A DNA stretch of 61,921 bases. It comes from Acutalibacteraceae bacterium. Its GTDB lineage: Bacteria; Bacillota; Clostridia; Oscillospirales; Acutalibacteraceae. The stretch's first letter is position 1; each line of letters starts with the position of its first letter. The stretch lies in contig JAZOBT010000089.1 of assembly GCA_045596125.1 (NCBI GenBank), positions 1 through 61,921 on the forward strand. Direction: 5' to 3'. The notes under the pieces are model-generated. The model worked only from the letters and a program-made list of their open reading frames with translations. It did no database searches and was not told where the DNA came from. Below, piece after piece: positions 28,263 through 32,991 of the stretch. The position numbers and the translations under genes are program-made.

Positions 28263-28299
28263 AAAAAGAACCTGCACCGATCGGTGCAGGTTCTTTTTT
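28263..28299. terminator. bidirectional terminator
   Basis: AAAAAGAACCTGCACCGATCGGTGCAGGTTCTTTTTT perfect palindrome. Confidence 0.7.
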
Positions 28300-28795
28300 A
28301 TGCTTCTTTGTGCTCTGCAAACCATGCAGGCAGGTCGATAACGCGTTGATTGCGACTACCGCGGAACTGTAATTCCAAATCGCGTTGCGCCTCAATATAC
28401 GGACCATCGATCAAGGTATCCACCAACCACAACAGGCGCATCACCCACGGGTCGGTCTTCCCTTTTTCCAACAATTGCTCCAACGTGTAACCGGAATACG
28501 CTACCACAGTTTTTCCCATCTCGCGCACACGCTGTGCCAGCTCACACAACGCTTCCGCTTGGCAAAACGGTTCTCCGCCCGACAACGTCACACCGGCAAG
28601 CAACGGGTTCTCCCGCATTTCACCGATCAAGTCATCCACGGTACGTTTGATTCCGCACCCGAACGGGTGCGATTGCGGATTGTGGCACCCCACACAATGG
28701 TGTGGACACCCTTGCACAAACACCACATAGCGAAATCCGGGTCCGTCTACGATCGATTCGGGTTCAATACCGCAAACATCAATCACTGAGGCCAT
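28298..28795 (-). CDS. nrdG: anaerobic ribonucleoside-triphosphate reductase activating protein (radical SAM)
   Basis: ESIVDGPGFRYVVFVQGCPHHCVGCHN (CxxxCxxC). Start taken at MASVIDV. Confidence 0.9.
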   Translation of the reverse strand: MASVIDVCGIEPESIVDGPGFRYVVFVQGCPHHCVGCHNPQSHPFGCGIKRTVDDLIGEMRENPLLAGVTLSGGEPFCQAEALCELAQRVREMGKTVVAYSGYTLEQLLEKGKTDPWVMRLLWLVDTLIDGPYIEAQRDLELQFRGSRNQRVIDLPAWFAEHKEA

Positions 28796-28934
28796 GCTTG
28801 ACTCGCTCTCTCTCCTCGGCGCGCTTGGCATTGTTGAAACGATCGGTCGTACCGACCAAATAGCCGGTAATACGGCGAATACGCTCAAATTTCATATCCT
28901 TACCTACTTCGGTAACACAAACTTTCTTTTCCAT
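28779..28934 (-). CDS. 51-aa stand-alone NrdD glycyl-radical segment (not in the ORF track)
   Basis: AAGGAG 9 nt upstream of the ATG. Translation is MEKKVCVTEVGKDMKFERIRRITGYLVGTTDRFNNAKRAEERERVKHGLSD. The 3' end overlaps the nrdG start. Confidence 0.7.
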   Translation of the reverse strand: MEKKVCVTEVGKDMKFERIRRITGYLVGTTDRFNNAKRAEERERVKHGLSD

Positions 28935-28982
28935 TGTCAAACACTCCTTTTTTAAATTCTATTGTATAAGAACTGCGTCTGA

Positions 28983-31268
28983 TTATTCACATCCGCAGAA
29001 ATGAGGCATATGCGGATACAATTTTCTCAATTCGTTCAATTTTTCCACACTTACCGATTCACCTTCGCGACGTCCGCAACGGGGGCATACCTCGTTGATA
29101 ACACCGGTATATCCGCAAACAGGATCGCGGTCAACGGGATGGTTCACCGAACCGTAACCCACGCCCGCTTCTTTCATGCAACGGATCACCGCCTCAAACG
29201 CCTCCAGGTTCTTGCAGGTATCGCCGTCTAATTCCACATAGCTGATATGACCCGCATTGGTCAATGCGTGGAACGGGCCTTCAATAGCGATCTTCTTGTA
29301 AGCGCTGATCGAATAGTACACCGGCACGTGGAACGAGTTGGTGTAATAATCGCGATCCGTCACACCGGCGATCTCGCCGTAGATCTTCTTATCAATGCGC
29401 ACGAAACGCCCGCTGAGTCCTTCTGCCGGCGTCGCCAACAACGTAAAGTTGAGGCCCGTCTGCTTGGACTGCTCGTCCATACGGTTGCGCATATACGTAA
29501 CGATCTCGTGACCAAGCTTGCGGCTCTCTTCACTCTCGCCGTGATGCTTACCCGTGAGCGCTTTGAGCGTCTCCGCCAAACCGATAAAGCCCACACTGAG
29601 CGTACCGTGCTTGAGCACTTCTGCCACACTGTCATCGGGTCCGAGATGTTCGGAATCGATCCACACACCCTGTCCCATCAAGAAGGGATAGTTGCGCACT
29701 TTCTTGCCGCATTGCACCTTAAACCGATGCAACAACTGACGGCACACCAGATCGATGCGTTGATCCAGCAAACGATAGAACTTATCGATATCGCCCTTCG
29801 CCTCAATACCGATACGCGGCAGGTTGATAGAGGTGAAGCTCAAGTTACCGCGACCGCAAGTCACTTCACGCTCTTTATCGTGTACGTTACCCATAACACG
29901 CGTGCGGCAACCCATATACGCCACTTCGGTATTGTAATCACCGGGACGATAATACTGCAGATTGAACGGCGCATCCAAGAAGCTGAAGTTCGGGAACAAG
30001 CGCTTCGCCGACGTTTTCATCGCCAGTTTGAACAGATCGTAGTTGGGGTCGCAGGCGTTATAGTTAATGCCTTCCTTCACCTTGAAGATCTGCACGGGGA
30101 AGATCGGCGTCTCACCGTTACCCAAGCCCGCATCGGTCGCCACCAACAGATTACGGATCACCATCCGCGCCTCAGGCGACGTATCGGTACCATAGTTGAC
30201 CGAGCTGAACGGCACCTGTGCACCCGCGCGCGAATTCATCGTGTTCAAGTTATGCACAAACGCTTCCATCGCTTGGAACGTCGCACGGTCGGTCTGTCTC
30301 CACGCGGTAGCCGCGGCAAAATCGTGTGCTTCCACCGCTTGCTCGGTCGTGATCGAAACAGCCGGTTGCGAATTTTTCGGCAACCAAACCGACAATACGT
30401 GCCCGACATCCTCGGTGTTGCCCATCTTCACTTCGACACCCAACGACTCGCGTGCCGTCGCCGCCAACGCTTCCGCATCGGTAGCACTCATACCGAACCG
30501 CACAATGAAATACTCTGCCAACGCGCGGAAATACTCCCGACGGTAGGTTTTCGCAACACCGGGTGCCATCGCATAATCAAAGTTCGGGATACTCTGCCCG
30601 CCGTGCATTTCGTTCTGGTTCGCCTGAATGGCGATACACGCCAGCGCCGAATAGCTTTGAATACCGTTCGGCTCACGCAAGCAACCGTGACCCGTGGAGA
30701 AACCGTTGCGGAACAGTTTGAGCAGATCGATCTGGCAGCACGTCTCCGTAAGCATATAGAAATCCTTGTCGTGGATATGAATGTCACCGTTAATGTGCGC
30801 CGCGGCAATATCCTTCGGCAAAATATAATTATCAATAAAATATTTGGAACCTTCGGAACCGTATTTCAGCATCGTACCCATCGCGGTATCCGCATCGATA
30901 TTCGCATTTTCGCGTTTGATATCGGCGTCCTTTGCGTACGAGAAAGTCAGCTCCTTATAAATATCCATCAAATCCGCCTCGGATTGACGGATCTTCGCGT
31001 GCTCCGCACGATACAAAATGTACGCCTTCGCGGTTTTACCGTATCCCGCGGCAATCAACTGCTCTTCAACCAAGTCTTGCACTTGTTCCACGCTGGGAAT
31101 TTCTCCCGCGGGAATCGACGCAACGACTTGCTGAGTCAATTCGACCAACGCTTGCGCCGAAATCTTTTCATCTGCCACGGCAATGTTCGCCTTATGCATG
31201 GCTTCCTTAATCTTATTGGAATCAAAAGCAACGGTCTCACCGTTACGTTTCCGGATCGATTCGATCAC
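28983..31268 (-). CDS. nrdD: anaerobic (class III) ribonucleoside-triphosphate reductase large ORF, lacking the glycyl-radical C-terminus
   Basis: N-terminal ATP-cone (RKRNGETVAFDSNKI), conserved core, and Zn-ribbon CGYTGVINEVCPRCG. Ends ...HFCGCE with no RxxGY. Start placed at a GTG 8 nt after AGGAG. Confidence 0.93.
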   Translation of the reverse strand: MIESIRKRNGETVAFDSNKIKEAMHKANIAVADEKISAQALVELTQQVVASIPAGEIPSVEQVQDLVEEQLIAAGYGKTAKAYILYRAEHAKIRQSEADLMDIYKELTFSYAKDADIKRENANIDADTAMGTMLKYGSEGSKYFIDNYILPKDIAAAHINGDIHIHDKDFYMLTETCCQIDLLKLFRNGFSTGHGCLREPNGIQSYSALACIAIQANQNEMHGGQSIPNFDYAMAPGVAKTYRREYFRALAEYFIVRFGMSATDAEALAATARESLGVEVKMGNTEDVGHVLSVWLPKNSQPAVSITTEQAVEAHDFAAATAWRQTDRATFQAMEAFVHNLNTMNSRAGAQVPFSSVNYGTDTSPEARMVIRNLLVATDAGLGNGETPIFPVQIFKVKEGINYNACDPNYDLFKLAMKTSAKRLFPNFSFLDAPFNLQYYRPGDYNTEVAYMGCRTRVMGNVHDKEREVTCGRGNLSFTSINLPRIGIEAKGDIDKFYRLLDQRIDLVCRQLLHRFKVQCGKKVRNYPFLMGQGVWIDSEHLGPDDSVAEVLKHGTLSVGFIGLAETLKALTGKHHGESEESRKLGHEIVTYMRNRMDEQSKQTGLNFTLLATPAEGLSGRFVRIDKKIYGEIAGVTDRDYYTNSFHVPVYYSISAYKKIAIEGPFHALTNAGHISYVELDGDTCKNLEAFEAVIRCMKEAGVGYGSVNHPVDRDPVCGYTGVINEVCPRCGRREGESVSVEKLNELRKLYPHMPHFCGCE

Positions 31269-31333
31269 ATTCCCCACTCCTCATTGCTGTACTTCCTCTG
31301 AATACCACGTGCCGCAACTAAAAAGCGGCCGTG

Positions 31334-31391
31334 CCACTATATATTACTACATATCGGTCTCCTTGTCAATGGCAAACACAATATATTGTGT
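31334..31391. promoter_or_regulatory. two NrdR boxes upstream of nrdD
   Basis: ACACAATATATTGTGT (31376-31391, perfect palindrome) and CCACTATATATTACTA (31334-31349). Confidence 0.7.
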
Positions 31392-31544
31392 ATGAAAATT
31401 TTTATAACTTCCCTTTTTCCGCATAAATCGCAGGTTTTTTAATAAAAAGAAAGATTCCGACACCACAATTTTTTGAACGACACGAGGTTTCCCGCTTAAT
31501 CGCGCGGACAAGCTCGTATTATATATGTATAAGGAGGTATGATT

Positions 31545-31889
31545 ATGGTAATACGGATGGGAACCGAGCCGGAGGGATTAACCGTCTGGCTTTCGGGCGA
31601 ACTCGACCATCACGCGGCACGCACCCTACGTGAACAAGTGGATGCCGCCGTGGAGCGTTCATCAGCAAAGCACCTGCGATTGGATTTTTCGGGTGTCACG
31701 TTTATGGACAGTTCGGGAATCGGTCTCATTATGGGACGCTATCGGTTAATGCAATCGCGCGGCGGTACGCTCACAGTGGCAGGCGCCTCGGAACGCTTGC
31801 TGCGCGTGATGAAACTCGCAGGGCTCGACCGCTTACCGGTGTGGGATGCTGCACCGAATACACAACACAAGGAGGTAACACGTAAATGA
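31545..31889 (+). CDS. spoIIAA: anti-sigma F factor antagonist (STAS)
   Basis: LTVWLSGELDHHAA...FMDSSGIGLIMGR phosphorylatable Ser context. Confidence 0.9.
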   Translation: MVIRMGTEPEGLTVWLSGELDHHAARTLREQVDAAVERSSAKHLRLDFSGVTFMDSSGIGLIMGRYRLMQSRGGTLTVAGASERLLRVMKLAGLDRLPVWDAAPNTQHKEVTRK

Positions 31890-32338
31890 AACAACCGATC
31901 AACGAAATGAAACTCACGTTTCCCAGTCGCTCGGCAAACGAGGCGTTCGCCCGCTCGGCGGTCGCCTCGTTCCTCACCCAACTCGATCCTGCCGTGGACG
32001 AGTTAGCCGACCTGCGCACCGCCGTATCCGAAGCAGTGACCAACTGTATCGTTCACGCTTACCGCGATACCATCGGCAACATCACGATCCAAATGCGTCT
32101 GTACGATGACGGCCGTACCGTCATTAAGATCCGTGACCGCGGTTGCGGTATTCCCGACGTGCCGCAAGCGATGGAACCGCTGTTCACAACAGGCGGTGAC
32201 GATCGCTCGGGATTGGGCTTCTCCGTGATGGAAAGCTTTACCGACCGCCTGCGCGTCACATCACGCGCCGGTCGCGGCACCACCGTCACAATGGAAAAAT
32301 ACATAACCGTGCGGGAACGGCAGGCGAAAGCAGTGTGA
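31886..32338 (+). CDS. spoIIAB: anti-sigma F factor (serine kinase)
   Basis: AVSEAVTNCIVHAY N-box and GLGFSVMESF G-box. ATGA overlap with the upstream gene. Confidence 0.92.
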   Translation: MKQPINEMKLTFPSRSANEAFARSAVASFLTQLDPAVDELADLRTAVSEAVTNCIVHAYRDTIGNITIQMRLYDDGRTVIKIRDRGCGIPDVPQAMEPLFTTGGDDRSGLGFSVMESFTDRLRVTSRAGRGTTVTMEKYITVRERQAKAV

Positions 32339-32991
32339 CACGCGACGAATACATCTGTGCCAATTTAGGACTCGTCCACAACTGCGCGCGCCGCTTTGTG
32401 GGGCGTGGCATCGAGTACGATGATCTGTATCAAGCCGGCTGTATGGGGCTCGTCAAAGCAGTGGACGGCTTTGATGAAAGCCGCGGACTGCGCCTATCCA
32501 CTTACGCCGTACCCGTCATACTCGGCGAAATACGCCGCTTATTTCGCGATGGCGGTACCGTCAAAGTCAGTCGCTCGCTCAAAGAACTGTCGATGCGTGT
32601 ATGCAAAGAGCGCGATGCCTTTCAAGCGCGCGAAGGCCGTGAGCCCACCGTCAGCGAATTAGCGGACGTATTGTCGCTGGAGCGCGAACAGGTGGTGGAA
32701 GCACTCGGTGCAGCGCTCCCCGCCTTGTCGCTCACGCGAAGCGGCGACAATGATGACGGCGATGAGATCGACGTTCCCGTGGCGGCACCCGAAGAATCTA
32801 TCACCGATCGCTTGGCGCTGGGGCAAGTGTTGTCGGAACTCTCCGAACACGACCGCTCGCTCATTGAACTGCGCTATTTCCAGCGCCGCACGCAACAGCA
32901 CACCGCCGAAGTTTTGGGAATGACACAAGTGCAAGTCTCGCGCCGCGAACGTGTCATCCTCCGCGAACTGCGCCGCCGCCTTTCCTCATAA
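32335..32991 (+). CDS. sigF: sporulation sigma factor F
   Basis: DDLYQAGCMGLVKAVDGFD region 2, and region 4 TQQHTAEVLGMTQVQVSRRE. GTGA overlap with spoIIAB. Confidence 0.92.
   Translation: MTRDEYICANLGLVHNCARRFVGRGIEYDDLYQAGCMGLVKAVDGFDESRGLRLSTYAVPVILGEIRRLFRDGGTVKVSRSLKELSMRVCKERDAFQAREGREPTVSELADVLSLEREQVVEALGAALPALSLTRSGDNDDGDEIDVPVAAPEESITDRLALGQVLSELSEHDRSLIELRYFQRRTQQHTAEVLGMTQVQVSRRERVILRELRRRLSS

Follow-up and report, generated by a model that had tools for sequence, protein, structure and literature searches.

To our knowledge, in all characterised class III ribonucleotide reductases (RNRs), and in all solved structures, the glycyl radical sits in the C-terminal domain of NrdD, the catalytic chain. 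In single-chain NrdD, the glycine loop of this domain enters the barrel beside the finger-loop cysteine, and the domain swings out for activation by NrdG; the field regards the domain as a mobile part that is integral to the enzyme. The C-terminal domain of Prevotella copri NrdD was disordered in inhibited states (PMC11226230). The locus described here is the nrd operon on the minus strand of contig JAZOBT010000089.1 (GCA_045596125.1) from an Acutalibacteraceae bacterium; the whole stretch of DNA analysed, 61,921 nt, is referred to as the window. The operon comprises a catalytic subunit gene without the glycyl-radical loop (nrdD-large), a small open reading frame (ORF) that carries this loop (nrdD-small), and the activase gene nrdG. 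It probably encodes (at a rough probability of 0.8) a natural, obligate two-polypeptide class III RNR, in which NrdG puts the radical on the small subunit and the small subunit works in trans.

Comparison with described systems

The single-chain NrdD enzymes with NrdG of phage T4, Escherichia coli, P. copri (8P23), and S. thermophilus (9D3X) resemble the present system in the hidden Markov model (HMM) family (NF005497/PF13597), ATP-cone, barrel, MGCR motif, position of the zinc ribbon, radical-loop sequence (RITGYLVGTTDR.N..K), adjacent NrdG, and control by NrdR. They differ from it at the C-terminus: here the chain stops just past the zinc ribbon in a 29-aa tail, and the loop and terminal helix are encoded by a separate gene with its own ribosome-binding site (RBS).

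Small stand-alone proteins with a glycyl-radical loop are known as cofactors of pyruvate formate-lyase (PFL), namely GrcA/YfiD and Y06I of phage T4, and phage copies exist there as they do here. By analogy, the radical of the small protein may likewise be installed by the activase of the large enzyme. Unlike GrcA (~127 aa), however, the 51-aa protein is homologous to NrdD and not to PFL. The enzyme that GrcA serves as a spare has a loop of its own, whereas the adjacent large subunit here has none, and the small protein would thus be an obligate subunit rather than a spare. An earlier note on this DNA, which had likened the small ORF to GrcA/YfiD, was therefore right about the kind of protein, a small stand-alone one bearing a glycyl-radical loop, but not about its part as a spare. 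According to a June 2026 review (PMC13450708), small spare-part proteins occur in no glycyl-radical class but the formate lyases, and the existence of spare parts for glycyl-radical enzymes other than PFL was left as a question by Andorfer et al. 2021 (PMC8683613).

Catalytic subunits encoded by two adjacent ORFs and associated non-covalently have been described for other RNRs, namely NrdJa/NrdJb of Pseudomonas aeruginosa, nrdJ-a/b of Thermus phage YS40, and NrdA-a/b of Aeromonas phage Aeh1 (PMC9669993, PMC3653736). These enzymes belong to class II or I, however, and are split within or after the core, with the radical-bearing element not set apart; moreover, the split of Aeh1 NrdA came from the insertion of a homing endonuclease, whereas no mobile element is present at the nrd locus here. 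The coding of nrdD in more than one piece is also known from phages with group I introns, inteins, and homing endonucleases (T4 nrdD/sunY and others; Dwivedi 2013; PMC3653736). Some of those interruptions are mended by splicing of the RNA or of the protein and others are recent fragmentations, whereas the present genes are initiated independently, without an intron or an intein-sized insert, and the arrangement is old and widely conserved. No description of a split-off NrdD radical segment was found in the literature searched, whose coverage left subscription journals mostly outside, in agreement with the earlier note, to which the arrangement was unfamiliar. The two-piece arrangement is widespread in sequence databases and has apparently gone unrecognised so far.

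The glycyl-radical segment is encoded by a separate ORF

NrdD-large comprises 764 aa when read from a GTG and 761 aa from the ATG chosen by public gene callers; the earlier note gave 760 aa. The end that it reported, the TAA at 28985-28983, is right. Its C-terminus reads ...SVEKLNELRKLYPHMPHFCGCE (also given as ...CPRCGRREGESVSVEKLNELRKLYPHMPHFCGCE). The small ORF, MEKKVCVTEVGKDMKFERIRRITGYLVGTTDRFNNAKRAEERERVKHGLSD, runs over 51 codons from the ATG at 28934 to the TGA at 28781-28779. It is in the same frame as nrdD, behind two stops of different kinds (TAA and TAG), and its ATG follows the sequence AAGGAG at a spacing of 9 nt. The ATG of nrdG at 28795 lies inside the small ORF, giving an overlap of 17 nt. 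The sequence, when re-read, agreed with the earlier account of this junction in every respect, including the spacer of 48 nt. The nrdG product scored 139.3 bits against TIGR02491 (cut-off 126.1), and its CxxxCxxC motif is CPHHCVGC at aa 30-37.

The small ORF encodes exactly the segment that is missing from nrdD-large, FERIRRITGYLVGTTDRFNNAKRAEERERVKH. After a variable 10-residue leader, its core reads VGKDMKFERIRRITG24YLVGTTDRFNNAKRAEERERVKH. The two ORFs cover the family models in a complementary manner: the large ORF matched positions 1-531 and the small ORF positions 529-562 of the 562 positions of Pfam NRDD (PF13597), and the corresponding ranges in NCBIfam NF005497 were 2-712 and 708-744 of 746. 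The small ORF matched NrdD C-termini with E = 5e-13, a similarity judged from sequence to be far beyond chance. It aligned to residues 707-738 of P. copri NrdD, which form the radical loop and terminal helix, and was 70% identical to the loop. Taken alone, it scored 33.2 bits in Pfam, over the cut-off of 26.2, and 46.9-48.5 bits in NCBIfam, under the cut-offs. Both the NrdD glycyl-radical signature recognised in the earlier note and the complementary coverage that it wished to see confirmed were thereby borne out. The predicted content of the small protein, with a mass of 5.9 kDa, is the glycyl-radical hairpin and the following helix only.

The sole Pfam match of the small ORF was PF13597 (NRDD), with no match to PF01228 (Gly_radical) at E <= 0.1, and no model for the small protein was found in Pfam, NCBIfam release 20, or PHROGs. 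The source databases name it ribonucleoside-triphosphate reductase or hypothetical protein. Across the family, the leader is variable (8-15 residues) and the core follows the pattern [VI]G.G[VI].FERIRRITGYLVGT.DRFN.AKRAEE.DRVKH. An alignment of 19 diverse sequences contained 29 invariant columns in the core, and the invariance falls on residues of the canonical radical loop.

This near-invariance, together with the identity to the P. copri loop, argues against a large subunit that is active without the small protein and takes its radical from elsewhere, with the small protein acting as a regulator or decoy of NrdG. Nothing favours such an arrangement directly; the tail start (GE.V.VEKL.EL) could be aligned by MAFFT to the start of the Gly loop (G..VKFERIRRI), and the resemblance was weak by hhalign (P = 0.01 over 12 columns). 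The tail has neither a glycine at the radical position nor an RxxGY motif, and the operon does not encode another radical generator. We consider this explanation highly improbable.

The large subunit has a predicted NrdD fold and ends in a conserved tail

NrdD-large scored 1064.5 bits with NF005497 (cut-off 764) and 629.4 bits with PF13597. It retains the ATP-cone (aa 7-94) and the ten-stranded barrel with the MGCR finger loop (aa 455-458, including Cys457 for the thiyl radical; 29904-29915), a motif defined in PMC9669993, and aligned to P. copri NrdD up to CPKCGSH, residue 705, with E = 2e-179. The AlphaFold (AF2) model, which was built on an alignment of loop-less relatives only, showed a mean predicted local distance difference test (pLDDT) score of 91.2 and a predicted template modelling (pTM) score of 0.86. 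It superposed on P. copri and T4 NrdD with template modelling (TM) scores of 0.85-0.91 (structures 8p2c/8p2s). The match of the large ORF to NF005497 ends at position 712 of 746, and no RxxGY motif was found in this ORF. The description of nrdD in the earlier note, with ATP-cone and core but a non-canonical tail in place of RxxGY, was thus upheld; a further glycyl-radical motif in the large ORF, named there as a ground for refutation, did not come to light. The closest relatives of the large subunit were from metagenome-assembled genomes (MAGs) of Oscillospiraceae, at ~77% identity.

The zinc ribbon of the large ORF contains only Cys721, Cys731, and Cys734 (29073-29117), one short of the four-cysteine CxxC...CxxC pattern, and Asp718 aligns with the first ribbon cysteine of P. 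copri (C-L-D-C-G-Y). Because unsplit relatives (L025, L026, L030, and others) also lack the first cysteine and have DRDPVCGY instead of C..CGY, its absence is a trait of the clade, unconnected to the split. His713 is invariant in the ribbon region (aa 713-735; 29073-29140) and, judging from the alignment, might be the fourth zinc ligand. A zinc site shared between the subunits, in which the fourth ligand would come from the small ORF (Cys6) or from the terminal CGC of the tail, was rejected, since neither the leader cysteine nor this CGC is conserved and the first ribbon cysteine is missing in unsplit relatives too.

In the class to which the window belongs, the tail follows the motif GE.[VI]..EKL.ELRKKYP..P.F.G.E, of which GE.[VI]..EKL.ELRKKYP..P was kept across 29 type-A loci. 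A tail helix at residues 744-753 was predicted by AlphaFold with a pLDDT of ~77-83. Purifying selection was found across the 29 type-A loci, where the ratio of nonsynonymous to synonymous divergence (pN/pS) was 0.16 in the core of the small ORF and 0.33 in the tail, at saturated synonymous sites (pS ~0.8).

Other tail classes were observed. In the short-tail class (Bacilli-type split loci L020, L033, L039, L062, and L073), the tail ends in ...CGGR*, the small-ORF ATG lies 11-12 nt past the large-ORF stop, and the Shine-Dalgarno (SD) sequence of the small ORF straddles this stop, with AGGAGG formed from the AG of the final Arg codon, or the last base(s) of the stop, and the GAGG or GGAGG that opens the spacer. 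Because of this overlap, the protein end in the short-tail class may be constrained by the RBS. A third class has a long tail of ~45-55 aa, GEPMT.EMW.KIKGYAN.GNA.TCG.CGNP.EEADR..N..., with a conserved Cys or His pair of its own (P0308, P0337, P0355, P0378, P0382, L037, and L158). Loop-less NrdD representatives were often 900-1450 aa long, compared with the typical 760-790 aa (P0285, 1261 aa; P0376, 1449 aa; P0382, 1437 aa; P0390, 1364 aa; and ~30 others). In these proteins the match to the C-terminus of the window's protein lies at the very end, indicating large N-terminal or internal additions, possibly inteins or fused domains.

The split is conserved across genomes

The small protein occurs with identical sequence on nine contigs, and the six places retrieved represented six different samples (ENA and Logan assemblies). 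The TAA, TAG, AAGGAG, and ATG at the junction were the same in all six independent assemblies, and the substitutions among them within the small ORF were synonymous only. In the search for homologues of the small ORF, 7993 of 8000 scored candidates had E <= 0.001, and the best 120 were all stand-alone proteins of 46-69 aa. Two of the homologues, P0094 and P0074, were found on 476 and 280 contigs, respectively. At a P0094 locus in another organism, nrdD (778 aa) is followed after 52 nt by the small ORF, in a frame different from that of nrdD, and then by nrdG with an overlap of 11 nt.

A scan of GTDB (one genome per species) yielded at least 597 matching loci, and classes were counted in the best 80. 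Single-chain NrdD was encoded at 23 of these, with a linker of 6-10 residues between CPxCG and FERIRRITGY, and the radical segment was on a small ORF, split or orphan, at 57. A complete truncated nrdD lies directly upstream of the small ORF at 46 loci (the window included); the other loci that were not unsplit were orphans or on truncated contigs. All 46 complete split loci have an ATG and, 5-10 nt upstream of it, an SD sequence for the small ORF, so that the recurrence of the split with its RBS in relatives, on which the earlier note had wanted evidence, could be confirmed. The spacer at the 46 loci measures 1-262 nt, and frame offsets of 0, 1, and 2 all occur, without preference. In 36 of 42 split loci, nrdG overlaps the small ORF or starts within 30 nt of its stop. 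By record titles, the taxa were Oscillospiraceae, Lachnospiraceae, Christensenellales, Erysipelotrichaceae and other Bacilli MAGs, Negativicutes, Mogibacterium, and a few MAGs labelled otherwise. A cultured strain, Allofournierella massiliensis DSM 100451 (L061), also has the split operon. On this sequence evidence, the split is common to many gut bacteria.

The identical junction in six independent assemblies, and the recurrence of the architecture in dozens of species, each with its own SD and ATG, contradict the notion that a once-continuous nrdD was broken by stops and is in decay, or that the stops are artefacts of assembly or sequencing. It is true that the two ORFs share one frame in the window with only 48 nt and two stops between them, that some database entries are plainly frameshifted unsplit genes (P0307, P0333, and P0413), and that nrdD calls are fragmented at L003 and L005. 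However, the tail is conserved, both halves are under purifying selection at saturated synonymous sites, the large ORF is far over the NCBIfam cut-off and has a confident fold, and a regulated promoter with an NrdR box is present. A pseudogene or error, between which and a genuine split the earlier note had not decided, is therefore effectively refuted.

The same comparison speaks against a single chain being rebuilt by recoding or splicing, whether through read-through, frameshifting, ribosomal bypass, a self-splicing intron, or trans-splicing by a split intein. Such a process is suggested by the shared frame in the window and by the group I introns and inteins that interrupt phage nrdD (PMC3653736), but it is at odds with the variable frame offsets and spacer lengths of the relatives, the two different stops in the window, and the canonical SD and ATG at every complete split locus. 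No Rfam family, intron or other, was found anywhere in the window, and the spacer is too short for an intron; the tail (29 aa) and the variable leader together make up ~40 aa, too short for an intein, and have no conserved junction nucleophiles. Stop read-through is rejected in view of the offsets 0, 1, and 2 among relatives, and the other forms of recoding or splicing are very unlikely.

The last 100 residues of the large ORF were searched against 1.84 billion cluster representatives (50% identity), and the nearest 150 were classed. The Gly loop after the zinc ribbon was absent from 113, whereas 23 were canonical and 14 were ribbon-less fragments. Since 113 of 150 lack the loop, the loop-less form is the commoner one in this NrdD clade and no oddity of a single strain. 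The 113 representatives fall into several tail classes that share the start R.EGE.[VI]..E.L. A tail and a loop in one chain, as expected if the split had begun with an insertion, occurred in none of the nearest 150.

A further possibility is that a complete NrdD is encoded elsewhere and that the small ORF provides a true spare of the GrcA kind for it, the loop-less large ORF then having another role or none. Orphan small genes far from any nrdD do occur, in phages and in bacteria (L016, L032, L035, L048, L075, L080, and others), and only 62 kb of the genome is visible. However, the large ORF has lost neither the ATP-cone nor the MGCR cysteine, is confidently predicted to fold as NrdD, lies in an operon with an NrdR box right before the small ORF and nrdG, and belongs to the loop-less majority, which is unlike a defunct protein; no second Gly-loop motif was present at any locus within the retrieved flanks. 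A spare part is thus an unlikely explanation, and an obligate small subunit is preferred. The bacterial orphans L016, L032, L035, and L075 lie in unrelated contexts: L035 lies between genes for a Crp-like regulator and a rubrerythrin (oxidative-stress neighbours), and L032 and L075 lie among small phage-like ORFs.

A proposed two-polypeptide enzyme and its history

The proposal of a two-polypeptide enzyme is based on the gene architecture, its conservation, the selection on both halves, and the predicted fold of the large subunit. One NrdR-controlled operon would give three products, NrdD-large, NrdD-small, and NrdG. NrdG would remove a hydrogen atom from Gly24 while the small subunit is free or already docked, and the loop of the small subunit would fill the barrel of NrdD-large in trans, in the place taken in T4 or P. 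copri NrdD by the covalently linked C-terminal domain. The radical would then be handed from Gly24 to Cys457; the small subunit is probably kept in place or oriented with the aid of the conserved tail. Cleavage by O2 at the glycine is established for PFL and NrdD (PMC13450708, PMC12288474). As O2 cuts glycyl-radical proteins at this residue, a separate radical subunit would confine the loss to 51 residues, which could be replaced cheaply, and the part would also be interchangeable.

Several points weigh against this proposal. In a neighbor-joining tree of the common core, split loci were spread over at least four clades, with unsplit clades among them, and the history therefore appears to be one of repeated fusion, fission, or recombination. 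The view of the genome is limited to 62 kb, so that a second, unsplit nrdD or another RNR class may lie elsewhere; none was found among the large ORFs of the window. Finally, it is normally the barrel that encloses and stabilises a glycyl radical, which makes the activation of a free 51-aa peptide less easy to envisage.

The tail is shared across separate clades; the core of L059 is 65% identical to that of the window, and its tail is nearly the same. Because the split clades interleave with unsplit ones and yet have the tail motif in common, the split is old, with later re-fusions or recombination. Both halves keep the junction segment G-E-x-V-x-[FV]-E-[KR]-[IL], which explains the overlap of their HMM matches at positions 708-712 and could be the trace of a short duplication at the site of fission, although the two profiles match only weakly (P = 0.01).

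A longer variant and phage copies of the radical segment

A second family of stand-alone NrdD-type radical proteins, of 88-100 aa, has an extra N-terminal domain fused to the same radical core (proteins P0121-P0240). AlphaFold predicted a beta-alpha-beta-beta arrangement for this domain (pLDDT 80-85), and a fold search with the model of the variant gave no significant match in the PDB. In the cultured Anaerovibrio sp. RM50 (L046:3836-4138; 101 aa) the variant is flanked by a loop-less nrdD and by nrdG, in the likewise cultured Selenomonas noxia ATCC 43541 (L053:3827-4111; 94 aa) only nrdG adjoins it, and in several Oscillospiraceae and Lachnospiraceae it is an orphan; it was also recorded at L048:3851-4117, L080, L022, L051, and L082. 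The helix of its N-terminal domain ends in KKYP like the tail of the window, and both contain ...L+KKYP.... In hhalign, the whole-profile comparison of the tail with the variant N-terminal domain was dominated by the shared Gly core, and only 10-11 columns aligned after the core was removed (P ~0.001, probability 15-20%).

In IMG/VR, at least 561 viral contigs carry a relative; the best 80 were examined (L086-L165), and 79 could be classified. The small gene was an orphan without nrdD or nrdG nearby at 66 of these loci, whereas 11 had an unsplit nrdD and 2 had the split operon. The viral small ORFs (n = 68, the 2 split operons included) comprised 60 distinct sequences with a median of ~55 aa (~41-70 aa), and an SD sequence was present in 66 of 68. 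Of 4 viral loci inspected, 3 were compared with PHROGs (L094:3955-4147, L126:3961-4137, and L154:3983-4135), and all 3 had unmistakable phage genes as neighbours, namely endolysin, integrase, large and small terminase, and RusA. The GenBank phage set (INPHARED) yielded nothing beyond unannotated faecal contigs and C. difficile phages that carry a full-length nrdD, and no record annotates the orphan mini-gene. The phage orphans of NrdD type parallel Y06I of T4 for PFL and, by this analogy, suggest that the small subunit is exchangeable and limiting.

A more far-reaching interpretation, which we put forward only tentatively and hold to be rather less probable than its opposite, is that the 51-aa protein acts as a radical cartridge that can be exchanged: NrdG would activate it, O2 would consume it, and a new copy could take its place without the 764-aa subunit being made again. 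It would then be the first autonomous glycyl-radical subunit outside the formate lyases. Temperate phages could carry orphans because the core is near-invariant across Clostridia, Bacilli, and Negativicutes; these genes of ~150 bp, without nrdD or nrdG, would boost or rescue the deoxynucleoside triphosphate (dNTP) supply of the host during infection, and the 88-100-aa variant would be a second form of the cartridge.

Features of the locus

The coordinates of the operon and its signals are given in Table 1. In the scan for NrdR boxes, 0.34 matches were expected by chance even with 3 mismatches permitted. The promoter sits directly downstream of the box, which abuts the -35 element. A second, degenerate NrdR half-box, CCACTATATATTACTA, was noticed on the other strand ~42 bp downstream, around 31333-31348. 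The hairpin after nrdG has a 16-bp stem with 7 GC pairs. Divergently upstream of the nrd operon (31539-32991, plus strand) are genes for a spoIIAA-like STAS protein, a spoIIAB-like anti-sigma kinase, and a sigma-F-like factor, on account of which the host is taken to be a spore-forming member of the Clostridia.

Table 1. Positions of the nrd operon elements in the window
Feature	Position	Strand	Basis
nrdD-large, class III RNR catalytic subunit without glycyl-radical loop	28983..31277	-	ORF, HMM, AF2 model
Conserved C-terminal tail of nrdD-large, RREGESVSVEKLNELRKLYPHMPHFCGCE, aa 736-764, in place of the Gly loop	28986..29072	-	
Intercistronic spacer, 48 nt, with in-frame TAG (28959-28961) and Shine-Dalgarno AAGGAG (28944-28949)	28935..28982	-	
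nrdD-small, putative 51-aa stand-alone glycyl-radical subunit, Gly24 codon at 28863-28865	28779..28934	-	HMM, homologues
nrdG, radical-SAM activase, 165 aa, CPHHCVGC at 28685-28708	28298..28795	-	HMM
GC-rich hairpin between A/T runs, likely bidirectional terminator of the operon	28263..28298	.	consensus scan only
NrdR operator box ACACAATATATTGTGT	31376..31391	-	perfect match to ACACWATATATWGTGT
Sigma-70-like promoter TTGACA-17-TAATAT for nrdD-large/small/nrdG	31341..31369	-	consensus match only, 10/12 positions

Significance

If the two-polypeptide enzyme is confirmed, the radical element would be a separate 5.9-kDa product in a large share of this Firmicutes NrdD clade, and annotation pipelines that call the large ORF a complete NrdD and the small ORF a fragment or hypothetical protein would mis-describe the enzyme. 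A natural two-piece system would also be a tool for studying the access of the activase to the glycine and the docking of the radical domain, as the radical part could be labelled, mutated, and titrated alone. The question of spare parts beyond PFL raised by Andorfer et al. 2021 (PMC8683613) becomes testable. In the anaerobic gut, the phage orphans suggest a new and extremely small auxiliary metabolic gene for the nucleotide supply of the host.

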